A DNA stretch of 64,000 nt from Escherichia phage vB_EcoM_3HA11, in the sequence record MN342150, one strand, 5' to 3'. This document shows, piece after piece, positions 6,341 through 62,677 of the stretch. The notes under the pieces are model-generated. The model worked only from the letters and a program-made list of their open reading frames with translations, made no database searches and was not told the DNA's origin. The position numbers and the translations under genes were made by a program. Numbering within the stretch: the stretch's first letter is position 1; each line of letters begins with the position of its first letter.

Positions 6341-6805
6341 ATGGCGCGTAATACGCTGGACATCTTGAAACTTTCAGCTGTTAACGATGAGGCCAGCATC
6401 GTTGATTGTATGGTTGAAGTTCAATTGAACCAAGATAAACCAGGAATTTTCCTGGGTATCAAGGAAACGCTGAGCCGCATCGGGGTGAACACTCGTCAAG
6501 AGCCGAATACCCTGTACCAAACATGTCATATTCTGCATAAATTTGGCAGATATCACATCGTGCACTTCAAGCATCTTTTCATGCTGGATGGGCATTACAA
6601 CGGCTTTACGCGTGAAGATGTCCTGCGTATGAATCGGATTATTCGGCTTTTGGAGCAGTGGAATATGGTTAAAATACTGCATCCGGAACAGATTACCGAA
6701 GTTGCTGATATGTCTCGAATCAAAGTTGTAAAACATGACCAAGTTTCTGATTGGAAACTGGTTCCAAAATATACCATCCGCCCGAGTCGGGCGAAAAGCG
6801 AATAA
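6341..6805 (+). CDS. regA: RegA translational repressor
   Basis: TCHILHKFGRYHIVHFKHLFMLDG and C-terminal WKLVPKYTI match T4 RegA (SCHILQKKGLYYIVHFKEMLRMDG ... WKLVPKYTI). Confidence 0.85.
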   Translation: MARNTLDILKLSAVNDEASIVDCMVEVQLNQDKPGIFLGIKETLSRIGVNTRQEPNTLYQTCHILHKFGRYHIVHFKHLFMLDGHYNGFTREDVLRMNRIIRLLEQWNMVKILHPEQITEVADMSRIKVVKHDQVSDWKLVPKYTIRPSRAKSE

Positions 6806-6821
6806 CTGGAGTCGCTATATT

Positions 6822-7685
6822 ATGACAACTACATTTAATAAAAACGTGAGACTGAATCTGGCTTTTGGTAATGCTGCAGGGGACGTGACCGACCCCGACT
6901 TTAGCAAAATTCGCAATCAGGCAAAACTCGTGCTGGAAGAGACCCGCGAACTTCTGGAAGCGGCTTATTACGATCATCAAGTGGTTCTAACATTAGAATT
7001 GAATCCTCGAGAAAGCGAGACGCCGACCACTACCGAAGATCTGATGAAAGCCATCATGGACGCGCAGGGTGATATCACTACTGTTAACGACGGTGTGGCC
7101 CATATCGCGGGTTTCAATGGCGATGAGTGTTTACAGCGCGTGTTTGCTTCCAACATGAGCAAGTTTATCCGCTCTGAAGATGAAGTCGGTCCGGCTCTGG
7201 ACTATTACTATTCTCGCGGTTTCCCTGATGGGCAATTGCGTGTGGAAGGCGAATTCCCTCAGGCATGTATTAAAGTTAATGAAACTGTCGTTTGGAATGG
7301 TAAAGAATATCCTAAAGGGAAATTCCTTAAAAACATGGCCGTTTTCCAAGAGCCTGATTTTTCTGACATGCTGACCAAAACTCCTTCCCGCCAGATCAAC
7401 GATATCGTTGCCAGCATGGCGATTGAAGAAGGTCAGGTGTTTATCGATGATCTCAATGGCGTGGCGTTGGTATCCCCGAACACATTGGGTGTAATCCTTT
7501 CCATGGCTGTTGAAAAAACTTCTCAACCTGTAGAGATCGACGGGCAAATCGAAAGTTATGTGCCAGCGTTCATCGTGGATGACACCAATATGCCTAAGCT
7601 GTGTGGGGTGTGGGGTTCTAATGTTCGTGTTTATGCGAGCACTCCAGTGCAGAACACGGTAACACACCTCTCCCGTATCGATTAA
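6822..7685 (+). CDS. hypothetical protein, possible all-alpha NTP pyrophosphohydrolase (MazG/HisE-like) N-terminus
   Basis: Start at internal ATG 6822 with GGAG RBS. LVLEETRELLEAAYYD ... EDLMKAIMDAQGD resembles the EExxE...ExxD metal-binding helices of MazG-like enzymes; weak. Confidence 0.3.
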   Translation: MTTTFNKNVRLNLAFGNAAGDVTDPDFSKIRNQAKLVLEETRELLEAAYYDHQVVLTLELNPRESETPTTTEDLMKAIMDAQGDITTVNDGVAHIAGFNGDECLQRVFASNMSKFIRSEDEVGPALDYYYSRGFPDGQLRVEGEFPQACIKVNETVVWNGKEYPKGKFLKNMAVFQEPDFSDMLTKTPSRQINDIVASMAIEEGQVFIDDLNGVALVSPNTLGVILSMAVEKTSQPVEIDGQIESYVPAFIVDDTNMPKLCGVWGSNVRVYASTPVQNTVTHLSRID

Positions 7686-7751: not shown

Positions 7752-8975
7752 ATGAAAGATAAACCGTGTGACATTCCTTATTGCGGTGTTCGGGAAGCTA
7801 AAATTAAATCTGCACATCCCATGTTAAGCCCATTCCATAAACAACTCGCATACGAATGGATGAGCGAGCGCTATAAGATCCACGTGAGAAAGGACGTCCA
7901 GCGTCTTCCTGCTCCTTGGACGGATAATCCCATACTACGGCAGGTCAAGTTCTGTAACGTCCGGAGAGAGCACGACAGGCAGTCTCTTAACCTGATCAAT
8001 AATATTGTCAAGAACGATGCTCTGGGCATGGCAGACAAGATGTTCAACTGCGTGTTGTTCCGCATGTTCAACCTCTGGGATCCTATCAAGGCTATCGGCG
8101 GTGCTCGCACGATCAAAGAGTTCGCAAACATCGATCTTGATGTAACCCGCAATCAACTTCAGGAATTTGAGGCCAATGGTGGTAAAGTGTTCACCAATGC
8201 ATTCAACACAGGCGGTCTAAAACAATGTCTGGCGTTCCCTGAACTTGTTGTCAACCACAAGGAGCAGCGCTTCGGTGGGATGATGGTTAAGGTACACCGT
8301 GTTGGCCAGGGTGTCGTGGATGAATTGGATTACAAGGTCGCCAAGAAGCTGGTTGAAGAGAATCCTGGGGAGTACACGATTGAGGGTTGGGAGCCGTACA
8401 TGCCAATGCGTGTCATCCGCTCTTTGAAGGCATTCGTCAACAAGTACCCCGATTACTTCAATGATCTTTTACGTCTTGACTCTCCGCTGAAAGTTTACCA
8501 GCGCATGTATGACGACATTGAAGGGCTTGGGCCATTCCTGGCATATCAGATCTGGGTGGACTTCACATACATCCCTGAGTATCCATTCAGTGAGAATCAT
8601 TTCACTATTGCTGGTCCAGGTTGCCGTGCGGGTATTGACCTGATGTTCCTGGATAAGGACGGCATGACTCATGAAGAATGCATCTTCTGGATTCGAGATC
8701 ACCAGTATCAAATGTTTGCTCAGTATGGTTATGTCCGAGAGCAGTTCTGGTCAGCCGAAGCGCCGGAAGATCAGTGCATGAACGTCATGCAGCTGGAGAA
8801 CATGTTCTGTGAATTGAGCAAGTACACCCGCTGTGTTGAGGCCATCGAGAGAGGAGAAAAGCCACGCGGCAAGGTCGGTTATGATGGAGGCGGGGAATAC
8901 AAAAAGCGATGCGATGAAGTTGTCCTCAATCGCGGATCGGTCAATTTGTTAGATCGTTTGAAGAAACCTGAATAA
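7752..8975 (+). CDS. conserved hypothetical protein (407 aa); candidate DNA/nucleotide-modification enzyme
   Basis: Good RBS (GAGAGGA). No motif I can assign with confidence; its placement after regA, where T4 has DNA polymerase, is notable. Confidence 0.5.
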   Translation: MKDKPCDIPYCGVREAKIKSAHPMLSPFHKQLAYEWMSERYKIHVRKDVQRLPAPWTDNPILRQVKFCNVRREHDRQSLNLINNIVKNDALGMADKMFNCVLFRMFNLWDPIKAIGGARTIKEFANIDLDVTRNQLQEFEANGGKVFTNAFNTGGLKQCLAFPELVVNHKEQRFGGMMVKVHRVGQGVVDELDYKVAKKLVEENPGEYTIEGWEPYMPMRVIRSLKAFVNKYPDYFNDLLRLDSPLKVYQRMYDDIEGLGPFLAYQIWVDFTYIPEYPFSENHFTIAGPGCRAGIDLMFLDKDGMTHEECIFWIRDHQYQMFAQYGYVREQFWSAEAPEDQCMNVMQLENMFCELSKYTRCVEAIERGEKPRGKVGYDGGGEYKKRCDEVVLNRGSVNLLDRLKKPE

Positions 8976-57225: not shown

Positions 57226-58185
57226 ATGTCCTATATTCTTCATATCGAGTCCGGCCTGAAATTTGAAATTGATGGTAAAACCGCTGCTGATCTTCAAGCA
57301 GAAATCAAAGGTGCAGACCTTATCATCGGCAACGTCACGTTACGCCGTATGATGGAAGGCGTCCTCCAGTCAGCCAACGGCTTTGAACTCATTGAAGGTC
57401 TGAGCCAGGAAGAGAAAGAAGAGACTCTCGAAGCTCTTGACCGCGCTGAAGCCGAAAAAGTTAAACCGACCGAAGATGCGGGGGTTAAACAGGGCGACGG
57501 TGAATCAAATCCGGTGATTGACGCTGAAGAAACGGTTGGGCAACCTGCCGGTGATCAAAATTCCCAGACCGTCGAAGACGGTTCTCTTGAAGTCAACAAA
57601 GACGGTTCCATTTCCCTGGTAGTTGAAGGCGAAGAAGTTCTTGACGAAGAAGCGCAAGCCCGTGCTGAAGAAGTTCGCCGTCGTATGCTGGGCACAACCG
57701 TTGCTGAAGCAATCGCCGACGTTGAAAATCCGAAGGATGATCAGGCTTTAGCGAACGCGAAGGCGGTTCTGGCCAAGAAATCTTCTGAAATGCGTCCTGC
57801 GTCTTCTACTGAAGAACGCAAGCGTCGTCATAACAAACGTGAAGAAATGGTTGACGCCGCTCGTGCTTCTAACTATGGTCCAATCCTGGCGGCGGTTGAA
57901 GCAGGGGTTACTCCTGAAGTATATTTGAGTTATGTGAACCCTGATATGCGCTGGTTCCAGTTCCCTGTCACTGAATTGGCAGACGAAGCCAATCCGCATG
58001 CCCGCACCAACACCTATGTTGATCTGGCACCTATCGTTTCCGGCGGCTGGGGTTTCAGTCTGTATGTGAATGGTAAGTCATTCACCAAGCGTCAGAAAAT
58101 CAAAGAAACTGACGCTGAATCTCTGGTAAAGGCTATCAACGAATGGTTGCCTCAGGCGTTGGCCGAAGCGAAAGCTGCTGCGTAA
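57226..58185 (+). CDS. acidic hypothetical protein (319 aa)
   Basis: Glu/Asp-rich central region; no domain assigned. Confidence 0.5.
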   Translation: MSYILHIESGLKFEIDGKTAADLQAEIKGADLIIGNVTLRRMMEGVLQSANGFELIEGLSQEEKEETLEALDRAEAEKVKPTEDAGVKQGDGESNPVIDAEETVGQPAGDQNSQTVEDGSLEVNKDGSISLVVEGEEVLDEEAQARAEEVRRRMLGTTVAEAIADVENPKDDQALANAKAVLAKKSSEMRPASSTEERKRRHNKREEMVDAARASNYGPILAAVEAGVTPEVYLSYVNPDMRWFQFPVTELADEANPHARTNTYVDLAPIVSGGWGFSLYVNGKSFTKRQKIKETDAESLVKAINEWLPQALAEAKAAA

Positions 58186-58257
58186 TTTAACTCAGAAGCA
58201 TTCAATAGATGAAGGGGTTGCTATAATAGCAGCTCCTTTTGTTTATTGGAGCATGTC

Positions 58258-58920
58258 ATGTCTTATTCGCTCAAAGGGCTGTTGAAGCGCCCTGTGCATT
58301 TGTTTGTCAAACCACCTGCTGTAGAAGGGGAATATTCGGCACGAGGAGAGTTGTATTACATTAAAGGCTCCAATGGTAGTGGTAAGTCTACTGTGCCCTC
58401 TTATTTGGCGGAGAATGATCCTCAGGCGTATGTCGTAACCCATAACAGTAAGATCATGCTCACGGTTTGTCCATCTTACAATATTGTCTGTGTCGGTAAA
58501 TATGACAAGTCTAAGTCCAAAGGGGTTGATTCTCTGAAGGATACTGAGCAGATGTTGTTCGCGTTGTCTATTTCTGACCAACCAGAATACCTGAAATATG
58601 ATGTGATTTTCGAAGGCATCATTCCGTCTACATTATTGAGTTCTTGGATCCCCCGCCTGACACGCCCACCACGTGAATTGGTCGTCCTCTTTATGGATAC
58701 CCCTCTTGAAACCTGTATTGCCCGTGTTAAATCGCGTAACGGTGGCGCAGACTTCAATGAAAGTCTGGTGGTCGAGAAGTGGGAGCGCGTTCACAACCAT
58801 CGGGGGCGGCATAAAGAGTTGTTCCCTACCGTGTGTGCGGGTATGATGAAGTCTCACGGTCTAACTGTAGACCAAGCTGTAATGGCGTTCCTCCTCCGTG
58901 ACTTTGGGAGCATTGACTAA
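58258..58920 (+). CDS. P-loop kinase (AAA_33/polynucleotide-kinase-like); candidate DNA or nucleotide kinase
   Basis: ATG 58258 with SD GGAG (track start 58246 is TTG). Walker A GSNGSGKST, Walker B-like VIFEGI, lid-like ARVKSRNGG. Confidence 0.6.
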   Translation: MSYSLKGLLKRPVHLFVKPPAVEGEYSARGELYYIKGSNGSGKSTVPSYLAENDPQAYVVTHNSKIMLTVCPSYNIVCVGKYDKSKSKGVDSLKDTEQMLFALSISDQPEYLKYDVIFEGIIPSTLLSSWIPRLTRPPRELVVLFMDTPLETCIARVKSRNGGADFNESLVVEKWERVHNHRGRHKELFPTVCAGMMKSHGLTVDQAVMAFLLRDFGSID

Positions 58921-59966
58921 TGGAAATTAAAGCTATCAATAACAACGACATGCTGAAACAGGCTGTCTTGGCTATCCGTGAATACGGGATTGAATCTGAT
59001 CCTGGCAACGCGGAGATCAACACTGACGGCACCCGCTTTCTTGATGGTGTGACTATCACCGTCAGTGATATCCGTGACCGCTGGTTATCCGTTGAAGGTC
59101 GCAACTCATCGGCCATCGCAGCTATCGGTGAGACTTTCTGGGTGCTGGCTGGGCGCAATGACCTGAAGTTCCTGTCACGTGTCCTGCCCCGCGCTGCCAA
59201 CTTCTCCGACGATGGCCTAACATGGCGAGCCGCTTATGGGCCGCGCCTGTACGCCCATGGTCAGTTACAGAGCGTCATCAACCGTCTCCGCAAAAACATC
59301 AACACCCGTCAGGCGTATCTCACCATCTATGATCCGTCTCTGGACTCTGATGTTGGTCTGGCCAAGCACAACGGCTCAAACGAAGCGAAGACCAAAGACA
59401 TGGTGTGTAACCTGGCTCTGTTATTTGCTGTCGTTGAAGGTCGTCTGAACCTGACGGTCATCAACCGCTCACAAGATGTCCTGTGGGGTATGAGTTCAAT
59501 CAACTTCATTGAGTTCTCTATCCTTCAGGAAGTGATCGCGCAGGTGCTGGATGTAGACGTCGGCCAGTACAAGCTGTTCTCTAACAATCTTCATTACTAC
59601 AACAATGAAGTCAGCCAGAAGCAGCTGGGTAAGATCACGAAGGACACCAAAGTAGAAGCTGGGTTCATCAACTCCATGATTCACTTCACGAACGTGACCA
59701 ACCAGAACCATATCCGCAATCTGTTCACTGGTGTGCTTCATCACTGTGATATCGGTAGCCCGTGGGAAACTGTGGTCGCCCACCTGAAGGAGTACGATGC
59801 TGATCGCGGCCTGATCGTACAGATGGCATACTGCCTGTACTGCAAGCTGAACGACAAGCTCATCAACATGAACCTGATTCAGGATCATGGCCTGAACATT
59901 GCACTCACTCACTCTCCGGTTGACCGCAAGATCGTTGATCCAAAGTTCCTGGAAGGTGCGTTATGA
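58920..59966 (+). CDS. thymidylate-synthase-family deoxypyrimidine hydroxymethylase (dUMP- or dCMP-hydroxymethylase-like)
   Basis: TS-fold core C-N-x18-RSQD-VLWG (catalytic Cys, RSxD 19 residues later, conserved Gly). Cys is followed by Asn not His; the base-specificity position after the Gly is I/N, not the Asp of T4 dCMP hydroxymethylase. 348 aa. Confidence 0.6.
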   Translation: MEIKAINNNDMLKQAVLAIREYGIESDPGNAEINTDGTRFLDGVTITVSDIRDRWLSVEGRNSSAIAAIGETFWVLAGRNDLKFLSRVLPRAANFSDDGLTWRAAYGPRLYAHGQLQSVINRLRKNINTRQAYLTIYDPSLDSDVGLAKHNGSNEAKTKDMVCNLALLFAVVEGRLNLTVINRSQDVLWGMSSINFIEFSILQEVIAQVLDVDVGQYKLFSNNLHYYNNEVSQKQLGKITKDTKVEAGFINSMIHFTNVTNQNHIRNLFTGVLHHCDIGSPWETVVAHLKEYDADRGLIVQMAYCLYCKLNDKLINMNLIQDHGLNIALTHSPVDRKIVDPKFLEGAL

Positions 59967-60532
59967 TGTATCCAAACCTTGAATTCTTTACGGGGCGTAA
60001 GCGCTCCGGCAAGGACTTCTGTTTGGAGTCCCTGATCAGCTACCACCATCTACAGGGAGACAAGGACATTCAACGCCTGTCTTTCTCGGATGAGCTGCGC
60101 CGTGTTGCCAACTACATCTACCCGTGGCTGCCTGAGGAGGTGGAGGATGCTGTGAAGGACGTTTCATTCATACACCCCGATAACCCCAAGGGCTTAACTC
60201 CACGGCAGATCTGGCTTCATCTCGGCAGCGATACGGGCTTGCGTTACGTACAGCCTGATCTGTTCCTGGCGTTCTTCAAGCGCTTCCAGCTTCCTCTGGT
60301 AGAGCAGAACCCTCACGTCCATTATATCGTGAGCGACCTGCGCACCCCCCAGGAATATGAATGGGCGCTGAGTACGAAATGTCCTATCACCCGCATTTCA
60401 AAGGCCGACCGCGCTGGTATCATAGAGGACGATATAGAGGCTTTCATTGATAAGATGGAAGTTGATTATGAATTTGTCAATCCGTTTGAAGGTTGGCAAC
60501 CGTTCGTCAAATTTTATAGGGATCGGAAATGA
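59963..60532 (+). CDS. deoxynucleoside monophosphate kinase (T4 gp1-like)
   Basis: N-terminal P-loop FTGRKRSGKD matches T4 gp1 (LSGVKRSGKD); ATGA overlap with the upstream gene. Confidence 0.65.
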   Translation: MMYPNLEFFTGRKRSGKDFCLESLISYHHLQGDKDIQRLSFSDELRRVANYIYPWLPEEVEDAVKDVSFIHPDNPKGLTPRQIWLHLGSDTGLRYVQPDLFLAFFKRFQLPLVEQNPHVHYIVSDLRTPQEYEWALSTKCPITRISKADRAGIIEDDIEAFIDKMEVDYEFVNPFEGWQPFVKFYRDRK

Positions 60533-61077
60533 TCACAACAGAGCATATTAAAAGTCTGCTCGAACTTCAAAAGGCCACCAACGTGGCCTATTTTGGGGAA
60601 GAGTGGAAGAATGTATGGAGTCAGAACGCGATCATCAACTCCATCTATCGCGAGTGGGCGGAGTTCCTTGACGAAACCACCCGCGACTGGAAGGTCTATG
60701 GTAACGACATCGGGTTTCACCATGCGAACGCAGTCTATGAACTGGTGGACGTGGTTCACTTCATGCTGTGTTTCATCCTCGTCGATCGCACCAAAGGAGA
60801 GATTGAAGAAGAAATGGAGAATCTTGGCCGACGGCTCGTCCCAGGGACGAGTTCAGTAGGGCATCGCAATGTTACGTATCGCCTTGGGCAGTTCATGAAC
60901 GATCCTTGCGTCGAGACTCTCATGGTCTTCCTATCGACTGTGTGTTCTTACATGGAGATCGACATTGAGACCTACATGCTGGCACACAAGCGCAAAAACG
61001 ATCGCAATCGGCTGCGTGCTGCTGGCGGCGCGAATTACGATAAGTCCGCAGAAACCCCTCTGACCCTGGAGTTCTAA
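60529..61077 (+). CDS. MazG-like dNTP pyrophosphatase (gp56 dCTPase/dUTPase-like)
   Basis: All-alpha protein with acidic helix motifs (REWAEFLDE, ELVDVVHFML); positioned in the nucleotide-metabolism block. Confidence 0.45.
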   Translation: MITTEHIKSLLELQKATNVAYFGEEWKNVWSQNAIINSIYREWAEFLDETTRDWKVYGNDIGFHHANAVYELVDVVHFMLCFILVDRTKGEIEEEMENLGRRLVPGTSSVGHRNVTYRLGQFMNDPCVETLMVFLSTVCSYMEIDIETYMLAHKRKNDRNRLRAAGGANYDKSAETPLTLEF

Positions 61078-61607
61078 TGTTTACAGTTGTCGTATCATAT
61101 TATGCGGAACATGCCCCGCAAATGGCAGAGAACTTTGCTGAGTTTATTAAACCTGGCAGACATGTCGTTATCGCGACCAAATTCAACAAAGAACCAGATG
61201 GTGCGGCTACTGTAACGCAACATATTACAACTCCAGAGCCGGAAACCCTTTTCAAACGTATTGAAGATTTTGCTTTTGGCGGGGAAGAAATTCCAGAGTC
61301 ATTACAGCATATCTATTTTGAAGATGCGATATATTATGTTCATGCTATTCCAAAGGATGTTACAACTGAACAAATGATGTATATCCTGAATATCGCATTG
61401 AATGTTTCTTGTGTCAACAGGGCACAGCACAATCGTCTGCGTAATATGTATTTAACAGAACGCGGGGGTTCCGAAATTAACGATGAAAAACTCCCGTCAA
61501 TAATGGCGATTCACGAAGCAATCAATATATTGTCCAAGAAAGTCTTGGGCACCGATTTATTAATTACGATCAACAAGCAAGAGGAAACGAAATGGCCGAT
61601 TCATTGA
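61077..61607 (+). CDS. hypothetical protein (176 aa)
   Basis: ORF; no recognisable domain. Confidence 0.45.
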   Translation: MFTVVVSYYAEHAPQMAENFAEFIKPGRHVVIATKFNKEPDGAATVTQHITTPEPETLFKRIEDFAFGGEEIPESLQHIYFEDAIYYVHAIPKDVTTEQMMYILNIALNVSCVNRAQHNRLRNMYLTERGGSEINDEKLPSIMAIHEAINILSKKVLGTDLLITINKQEETKWPIH

Positions 61608-62677
61608 TGGCTCGCATGCTCAAGACAGCAAAGAAACTGGACCCGAATGCCGAAGTGCTGTCAAAGACCGATGCGCTGAAGCCTGACATTATTTGCAGTA
61701 CGGGTATTCCTATTCTGAATTTGGCCTGGTCCGGTCGTATTGATGGTGGTCTGATATCAGGCATCAAACAGTTGGTGGGGGATTCTCGTACATTCAAAAC
61801 CATGTTTGGGCTGGTAGATGTTAAGGCTTACATGGATAAGTTTCCTGATGCAATTTGTATCTTCGCGGATTCCGAAGGCGGTGCGAATGAAAACTACTGG
61901 ACATCTATGGGTATTGACATGGACCGTGTCTTGTATCTGCCGATTGAAAACGTTGAAAAGACGAAGATCAAGCTGACACAGCTTCTGAATGATGCTCAGA
62001 AAGGTGACAAGATCATCGTATTCATCGACTCAATCAGCCAGTTGCCGTCTACCAAAGAAGTTGATGATGCTATCGCGGGCAAAGACACACAAGATATGAC
62101 TCGCGCTCGCGCTCTCAATAGTTTTTGGCGTGTTATCACTCCGTTGGTCACTGAAAAGAAATTCGTTTTGGTATGGATCAACTCGTACTATGATGAAATC
62201 GGGAACCAATACGCCGAGCCGAACATCAAAGGCGGTAAACAGGGGTTCCTGTCTTCTAACCAATTGTGGTTCATCACGCGTTCTCAAGTAAAAGAAGACA
62301 AAGACCTTTTGGGATGGCAGTTTACAGTCAACATCATGAAAGGTCGCTTTGTCCGTGAAAAATCCAAGTTCCCTGTCACTGTGTTGTATGAAGGCGGTAT
62401 TGACCGTTGGTCCGGTATGTTAGAAATTGCGCGCATGCTGGGGTATGTGGATTTGGTGAGTGGTTCTTGGTATCAACGTACTGCCAAAGGCGGGTTTGAT
62501 CCAGAAAAAGAAAAGAAATATCGTAAGGCAGAGCTGGGGGATGACTTCTGGTATCCGTTGCTGGAAAACCCAGACTTTGTTGACGATGTGAACAACATGT
62601 TCGGTATCTCTCAGAGTTCGGTTATGCCTGCAGATATGCTGGAGCGCCTCGATAATGTCATCAAAACAACCGAGTAA
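61592..62677 (+). CDS. uvsX: UvsX recombinase (RecA/Rad51 family)
   Basis: Near-colinear with T4 UvsX: GIPILNLAWSGRIDGGL, VFIDSISQL, DMTRARALNSFWRVITP, LLGWQFTVNIMKGRFVREKSKF, GGIDRWSGMLEIARMLGYV. Confidence 0.9.
   Translation: MADSLMARMLKTAKKLDPNAEVLSKTDALKPDIICSTGIPILNLAWSGRIDGGLISGIKQLVGDSRTFKTMFGLVDVKAYMDKFPDAICIFADSEGGANENYWTSMGIDMDRVLYLPIENVEKTKIKLTQLLNDAQKGDKIIVFIDSISQLPSTKEVDDAIAGKDTQDMTRARALNSFWRVITPLVTEKKFVLVWINSYYDEIGNQYAEPNIKGGKQGFLSSNQLWFITRSQVKEDKDLLGWQFTVNIMKGRFVREKSKFPVTVLYEGGIDRWSGMLEIARMLGYVDLVSGSWYQRTAKGGFDPEKEKKYRKAELGDDFWYPLLENPDFVDDVNNMFGISQSSVMPADMLERLDNVIKTTE

Follow-up and report, generated by a model that had tools for sequence, protein, structure and literature searches.

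The DNA of phage ViI contains 5-(2-aminoethoxy)methyldeoxyuridine (5-NeOmdU) (Lee et al., 2018; PMC5889632), and about 40% of thymidines are present as this base in both ViI and CBA120 (PMC5889632, PMC8989533, PMC11721090). The post-replicative steps of the pathway have been reconstituted in vitro starting from DNA that carries 5-hydroxymethyldeoxyuridine (5-hmdU) (Lee et al., 2021; PMC8989533), and a 2024 review describes the modification genes as conserved across Ackermannviridae (PMC11721090). Here we analysed a 64,000-nucleotide stretch of Escherichia phage vB_EcoM_3HA11 (MN342150; hereafter the window), in which a gene of the thymidylate synthase (TS) superfamily at positions 58920..59966 (+ strand) very probably encodes, for a ViI-like (Kuttervirus) phage, the enzyme that opens the route to the modified thymine: a deoxyuridine monophosphate (dUMP) hydroxymethylase, which converts dUMP to 5-hydroxymethyl-dUMP (5-hmdUMP). 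Kutter et al. (2011) studied the CBA120 orthologue: 3H-thymidine was not incorporated by this phage, and its 'TS' grouped with the enzymes that synthesize hmdU in phages phiW-14, SPO1 and YuA; ViI and AG3 have the gene too, and these authors argued that the CBA120 gene encodes a dUMP hydroxymethylase (PMC3184105). In Fig. 2 of Lee et al. (2018), whose maps include ViI-like phages, the kinase-associated TS-family gene is labelled dUMP hydroxymethyltransferase (PMC5889632). Co-expression of a homologue from phage SH-Ab 15599, 36% identical to the window protein, with the other enzymes of its pathway led to a base derived from 5-hmdU in the DNA of E. coli (PMC13458397). The dUMP hydroxymethylase of ViI-type phages and the pathway around it were thus already described, in 2011 and 2018, and the present assignment is not a discovery and carries little weight as one. 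Its practical value lies in annotation, the names 'thymidylate synthase' and 'terminase small subunit' in RefSeq and GenBank records being misleading.

The gene begins with ATG, encodes a protein of 348 aa, and is the orthologue of Det7 gene 108, ViI thyA (Vi01_060c, orf00066) and CBA120 orf073. Megablast matched it in 226 phage records, with gene 108 of Salmonella phage Det7 at the top (98.3% nucleotide identity); at the protein level, it is 99.4% identical to the product of Det7 gene 108, against 73% for the ViI counterpart. Because of this match, and because the 20 kb surrounding the gene are approximately 96% identical to several Kuttervirus genomes, the window is, as judged from its sequence, that of a ViI-like member of Kuttervirus (Ackermannviridae) with synteny to Det7 and ViI. 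The protein matched Pfam Thymidylat_synt (PF00303) over residues 69-235 (E = 3.4e-15) and PHROG 3676 over its full length (E = 5.7e-183). It has the features of the TS/pyrimidine hydroxymethylase superfamily, namely the TS fold, the catalytic Cys, an RSxD motif 20 residues on, and the conserved Glu, Tyr, His and Tyr. In some GenBank records the gene is already annotated as deoxyuridylate hydroxymethyltransferase.

The protein was aligned, using MAFFT, with SPO1 gp29, the TS homologues of phages SH-Ab 15599, YuA and SP10, T4 gp42 (taken from NC_000866), E. coli ThyA (checked to be identical to PDB 1aob) and the core of the CMP hydroxymethylase MilA. SH-Ab 15599, YuA and SP10 are phages that make 5-hmdU-derived bases, and SPO1 gp29 is the classical assayed dUMP hydroxymethylase (biochemically characterized by Wilhelm and Ruger, 1992, as cited in PMC8989533). 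Residue conservation was counted over 72 homologues. Read from the sequence, the nucleophile Cys163 is followed by Asn164, which replaces His147 of TS; Arg183-Ser184-Gln185-Asp186 forms the RSxD motif (59466..59477, + strand), and Gly190, Ile194 and Asn195 (59502..59504, + strand) lie downstream. The distance from Cys to Arg is 20 residues, equal to that in E. coli ThyA (C146 to R166) and T4 gp42 (C148 to R168), which confirms the statement in an earlier note on this DNA that the fold is that of the TS family with the Cys-to-RSxD spacing of TS and T4 gp42. That note was also correct that the protein has neither the TS His nor the Asp of dCMP hydroxymethylase, Ile194 and Asn195 occupying the positions four and five residues past Gly190. 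The catalytic residues E71, Y106, C163, R183, D186, H225 and Y227 were invariant among the aligned homologues; Asp160, Cys163 and Asn195 were each conserved in 72 of the 72 homologues counted, and Asn164 in 65.

A published analysis of differential conservation, which set contigs with modified DNA against contigs whose DNA is unmodified, found ThyA positions 147 and 177 to be the most discriminating in TS-family enzymes (PMC8670742). The Asn/Asp switch in base specificity at the latter position has been established through mutagenesis (PMC5175136; Graves, 1992, Hardy, 1992, and Liu and Santi, 1992, as cited in PMC8670742). Asn195 aligned with Asn177 of ThyA, the determinant of uracil specificity (PMC8670742, PMC5175136), and with the Asn of the SPO1 gp29, SP10, YuA and SH-Ab 15599 enzymes, whereas T4 gp42 and MilA have Asp at this position. 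A phmmer alignment to the bacterial TS 6auj, which is independent of MAFFT, likewise placed Asn195 opposite the TS Asn, with a one-residue insertion immediately before it. Compared with ThyA and T4 gp42, the specificity loop has one additional residue: the specificity residue lies at +8 from the RSxD Asp in ThyA, gp42 and SP10, and at +9 in the window, SPO1, YuA and 15599 proteins. MAFFT paired Asp179 of T4 with Ile194 instead of Asn195; we rejected this pairing as an artefact of gap placement, given that T4 gp42 and ThyA have equal spacing and the window protein has one extra loop residue. In phmmer, the MilA Asp fell opposite Ile194 with a gap at Asn195, the same ambiguity, which is without consequence because the loop has no Asp. 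Between Gly190 and Glu198 no Asp was found, and the residue that marks a dCMP hydroxymethylase at the Asp179 position is therefore absent. The comparison with ThyA, T4 gp42 and SPO1 gp29 that the earlier note had proposed as a check for Asp at the Asn177-equivalent position thus returned a loop without any Asp, and the uracil substrate it had read from the Asn was supported.

Asn195 alone cannot mark a hydroxymethylase, however, because ordinary TS has the same Asn; in this respect the earlier argument, which had gone from the Asn directly to a dUMP hydroxymethylase, was insufficient. In the ternary complex of T4 dCMP hydroxymethylase, the residue that activates water is Asp145, three positions ahead of the catalytic Cys; TS has Leu there, and the D145N substitution abolishes activity (PMC6400193). 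The corresponding residue of the window protein is Asp160 (Leu143 in TS), and the codons for Asp160 to Asn164, which span this signature (PMC6400193), lie at 59397..59411 (+ strand). The case confirms that ThyA positions 147 and 177, together with the Asp three residues before the Cys, suffice within this superfamily for reading both substrate and chemistry from a sequence. Trp80 of TS falls in a gap, Trp83 is replaced by Phe95, and the C-terminal tail that closes over folate is missing. Scores against every NCBIfam TS equivalog model were 52.5 bits or less, under each curated cut-off (327 for the best-scoring model); NCBIfam holds no dUMP hydroxymethylase model and returned only these sub-threshold TS matches. 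BLASTP detected SPO1 gp29 at E = 2e-32 (35% identity). Assignment as a hydroxymethylase is thus supported by Asp160, by the loss of Trp80, His147 and the C-terminal tail of TS, by clustering with SPO1 gp29, and by the adjacent 5-hmdU DNA kinase gene.

RefSeq and most GenBank records name the protein as an ordinary TS, which would make dTMP. The match to PF00303, the PHROG name 'thymidylate synthase' and the uracil-specific Asn shared with TS all agree with this name, as does the finding that roughly 60% of thymidines are unmodified in ViI and CBA120 DNA (PMC11721090). We nevertheless consider an ordinary TS very unlikely, given the equivalog scores, the replacement of Leu143 by Asp, His147 by Asn and Trp83 by Phe, the missing Trp80, a MilA-like helical domain where the folate-closing tail should be, the adjoining 5-hmdU DNA kinase gene, and the absence of thymidine incorporation by CBA120 (PMC3184105).

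Several observations weigh against assignment as a dUMP hydroxymethylase, the large fraction of unmodified thymidines being one. The Ser two residues before the catalytic Tyr, which is part of the T4 dCMP hydroxymethylase signature, is replaced by Ala104, and neither Ser nor Thr is present; the geometry of water activation may therefore differ. With a single exception, the 72 homologues, among them the assayed SPO1 enzyme, have Ala or Gly at this position, as do the other phage homologues assigned as dUMP hydroxymethylases; we take Ser/Thr to belong to the cytosine (dCMP/CMP) branch and not to define the dUMP branch. An equivalent of ThyA Arg21 was not obvious in the alignment. A direct enzyme assay of the ViI, CBA120 or any other Kuttervirus protein was not found in the searchable literature, nor was a dUMP hydroxymethylase structure found in the PDB, by sequence or by fold search. 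For the reaction itself, the DNA chemistry of ViI and CBA120 gives support of an indirect kind (PMC5889632, PMC3184105).

MilA, which has the closest solved structure, acts on a ribonucleotide, and a UMP or CMP hydroxymethylase of this kind was also considered. The pair of residues that distinguishes deoxyribose from ribose substrates (PMC5175136) is of the deoxyribose type in the window protein, with Arg130 at the ThyA R126 position and Ser184 at the ThyA S167 position, where MilA has Lys133'/Ala176. Asp186 of MilA is Asn in the window protein, and the gene context is one of DNA metabolism; a ribonucleotide substrate is accordingly most improbable. A cytosine-specific, T4 gp42-like enzyme making hydroxymethyldeoxycytidine (hmdC) DNA is scarcely credible, even though the phage has T4-like replication genes and shares with gp42 the Asp three residues before the Cys, since the specificity loop has no Asp, Asn195 is invariant, gp42 was matched by BLASTP at only E = 0.003, and CBA120 does not substitute hmdC (PMC3184105); an hmdC enzyme, treated in the earlier note as the expected one, was never to be expected for this group.

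Among the 72 homologues, 16 had the ribose-type Lys/Ala pair of MilA alongside an Asn of the uracil type and the Asp of hydroxymethylases, and covariation of Lys with Ala was perfect (P0048, P0050, P0054, P0055, P0058, P0062, P0065, P0067, P0068, P0071, P0076, P0079, P0080, P0091, P0094 and P0096). Those with a source name are bacterial (Dickeya lacustris, Sodalis ligni, Rhizobium rhizogenes, Streptomyces, Nocardia and Sphaerisporangium). These residues would predict that the 16 proteins hydroxymethylate a ribonucleotide, UMP. To our knowledge, no enzyme with UMP hydroxymethylase activity has been described.

Returning to the dUMP hydroxymethylase of the window, comparison with characterized enzymes places it nearer to SPO1 gp29 than to TS or T4 gp42; with SPO1 gp29 it shares the Asp three residues before the Cys, the Cys-Asn pair, RSxD, Asn at the N177 position, the loop longer by one residue and a C-terminal extension. 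The C-terminal regions of the two proteins cannot be aligned at the sequence level, and 5-hmdU stays unmodified in SPO1 DNA but undergoes further modification in the phage group of the window. T4 gp42 (PDB 1b5e, 6l18) has in common the TS fold, the catalytic Cys, Glu, Tyr, RSxD and the water-activating Asp that precedes the Cys by three residues (PMC6400193). E. coli ThyA shares the fold, the Cys-to-Arg spacing, Asn177, and the equivalents of Glu58, Tyr94, His207 and Tyr209, but differs at the TS-specific residues and tail described above, and water addition is predicted in place of hydride transfer. MilA (Streptomyces rimofaciens; PDB 5jnh, 5b6d) differs in its Asp at the base-specificity position, its Lys/Ala ribose pair, its CMP substrate and its role in antibiotic synthesis (PMC5175136). 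The enzymes of the ViI-like phages ViI, CBA120 and Det7 are orthologues; they share its gene neighbours and the order of these, as well as the D-x-x-C-N ... RSQD ... N motif. No functional difference separates the window gene from them; it belongs to the Det7/SP1/SKML-39 allele class and not to the ViI/CBA120 class.

The earlier note had remarked that the protein is about 100 residues longer than T4 gp42, and this holds (348 versus 246 aa). Comparable lengths are found in the other dUMP hydroxymethylases (SPO1, 383 aa; SP10, 382 aa; 15599, 375 aa; YuA, 351 aa), and length therefore marks the dUMP branch and is not an anomaly. An AlphaFold2 model built with 68 homologues had a mean predicted local distance difference test score (pLDDT) of 93.8 and a predicted template-modelling score (pTM) of 0.93. 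Foldseek aligned the model with MilA at a TM score of 0.74. In this model the extra residues, approximately 100 in number, form a C-terminal helical domain like that of MilA, since the match to MilA spans the whole length; the domain covers about residues 250-348 (59667..59963, + strand), is absent from TS and T4 gp42, and resembles the five-helix C-terminal domain of MilA (PMC5175136). In MilA this domain lies away from the active site, and its truncation yields insoluble protein (PMC5175136). By analogy, the domain of the window protein is probably an accessory, structural one. It differs in sequence among dUMP hydroxymethylases. A more speculative and rather doubtful idea is that the domain could dock the hydroxymethylase to the deoxynucleoside monophosphate (dNMP) kinase, the dTTPase/dUTPase and the 5-hmdU DNA kinase, in a complex that channels 5-hmdUTP much as the T4 dNTP-synthetase complex does; its role would then go beyond assisting folding. 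The pLDDT and the MilA-like architecture suggest that the protein would be an easy and useful structural target.

The following route can be proposed, its catalytic steps modelled on the mechanisms of TS and T4 dCMP hydroxymethylase. Cys163 would attack C6 of dUMP while Asn195 holds the base through O4 and N3-H. C5 would then take up the one-carbon unit of 5,10-methylene-tetrahydrofolate, and elimination of tetrahydrofolate would leave an exocyclic methylene. Water activated by Asp160 would add to this methylene, replacing the hydride transfer of TS, to give 5-hmdUMP and tetrahydrofolate as products. The downstream dNMP kinase and host nucleoside diphosphate kinase would convert 5-hmdUMP to the triphosphate, the adjacent pyrophosphatase would probably remove dTTP and dUTP, and the phage polymerase would incorporate 5-hmdU. 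After replication, the upstream 5-hmdU DNA kinase, together with a serine transferase and a pyridoxal phosphate-dependent decarboxylase, both encoded elsewhere in the genome, would turn part of the 5-hmdU into 5-NeOmdU, a base that blocks many restriction enzymes. The earlier note had linked a dUMP hydroxymethylase with hmdU-containing DNA; the enzyme is supported, but the virion DNA of this group carries 5-NeOmdU and not 5-hmdU (PMC5889632, PMC8989533, PMC11721090).

The hydroxymethylase gene stands in a series of overlapping genes that includes others of the 5-hmdU pathway: the 5-hmdU DNA kinase (5-HMUDK, PF18748), a dNMP kinase and a nucleoside triphosphate (NTP) pyrophosphatase. The 5-hmdU DNA kinase gene (58258..58920, + strand; PF18748, E = 1.7e-111) has a stop codon that overlaps the hydroxymethylase ATG (TAATG). 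Its orthologue in ViI is gp67, for which phosphorylation of 5-hmdU in DNA has been demonstrated (PMC8989533, Table 1). The hydroxymethylase stop codon overlaps (ATGA) the start of a dNMP kinase gene (59963..60532, + strand; phrog_139, E = 8.9e-48), a predicted 5-hmdUMP kinase (PMC3184105). A further ATGA overlap joins the latter to a gene for an all-alpha NTP pyrophosphohydrolase (60529..61077, + strand; dUTPase_2/MazG-like), a candidate dTTPase/dUTPase (PMC13458397). The run ends with a gene for a phage ACT-like domain protein (61077..61607, + strand; PF24021, E = 1.6e-86), after which UvsX follows. The dNMP kinase gene matches the N-terminal half of SH-Ab 15599 gp18 (E = 1e-17) and the pyrophosphatase gene its C-terminal half (E = 3e-8); gp18 hydrolyses dTTP and dUTP but not 5-hmdUTP (PMC13458397). 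SH-Ab 15599 gp18 (L004:7108-8283) looks like a fusion of a dNMP-kinase-like protein and a pyrophosphatase, where the window has two ATGA-overlapping genes (59963..61077); the 2026 paper gives the activity of the gp18 C-terminal domain only (PMC13458397).

The 5-hmdU DNA kinase is misnamed 'terminase small subunit' in RefSeq records and in the label of PHROG 800, and 'baseplate hub' in one GenBank record of Det7. The Det7 annotation of the hydroxymethylase carries the remark 'protects ends of linear DNA'. These labels look like errors carried over from record to record.

Upstream of the kinase gene, a strong terminator-like hairpin (58211..58239, + strand) with a 13-bp stem followed by a T-rich tract was detected by consensus scan only. 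It lies in the 72-nucleotide gap between the gene for a 319-aa unknown protein and the kinase gene, and its loop region contains TATAATA. A scan for sigma-70 promoters returned 15 sites against 10.9 +/- 2.8 expected and was uninformative; only this hairpin stood out. Its position just upstream of the kinase gene suggests a probable transcription unit boundary.

A second locus linked to thymidine hypermodification lies approximately 50 kb away (7752..8975, + strand) and encodes a 407-aa protein matching PF18723 (HMUDK_hel, the 5-hmdU DNA kinase helical domain; E = 3e-82). This protein is 'hypothetical' in Det7 (gene 36); the preceding gene (6735..7685), named MazG-like in Det7, had no Pfam match.

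Two hydroxymethylase allele classes, Det7/SP1/SKML-39 and ViI/CBA120, occur in Kuttervirus. They are about 70% identical in nucleotide sequence and approximately 73% identical as proteins, in genomes that are otherwise approximately 95% identical, and the active-site motifs are kept in both. The surrounding region (57226..62677) showed sharp, gene-by-gene mosaicism when compared with ViI, phage 241 and Det7. Nucleotide identities to these three phages, in that order, were 99, 99 and 94% for the gene of the 319-aa protein, 83, 83 and 99.5% for the 5-hmdU DNA kinase, and 70, 70 and 98% for the hydroxymethylase. Further downstream, they were 89, 88 and 86% for the dNMP kinase, 70, 82 and 70% for the pyrophosphatase, 91.5, 91.5 and 96.6% for the ACT-like protein, and 71, 91 and 70% for UvsX.
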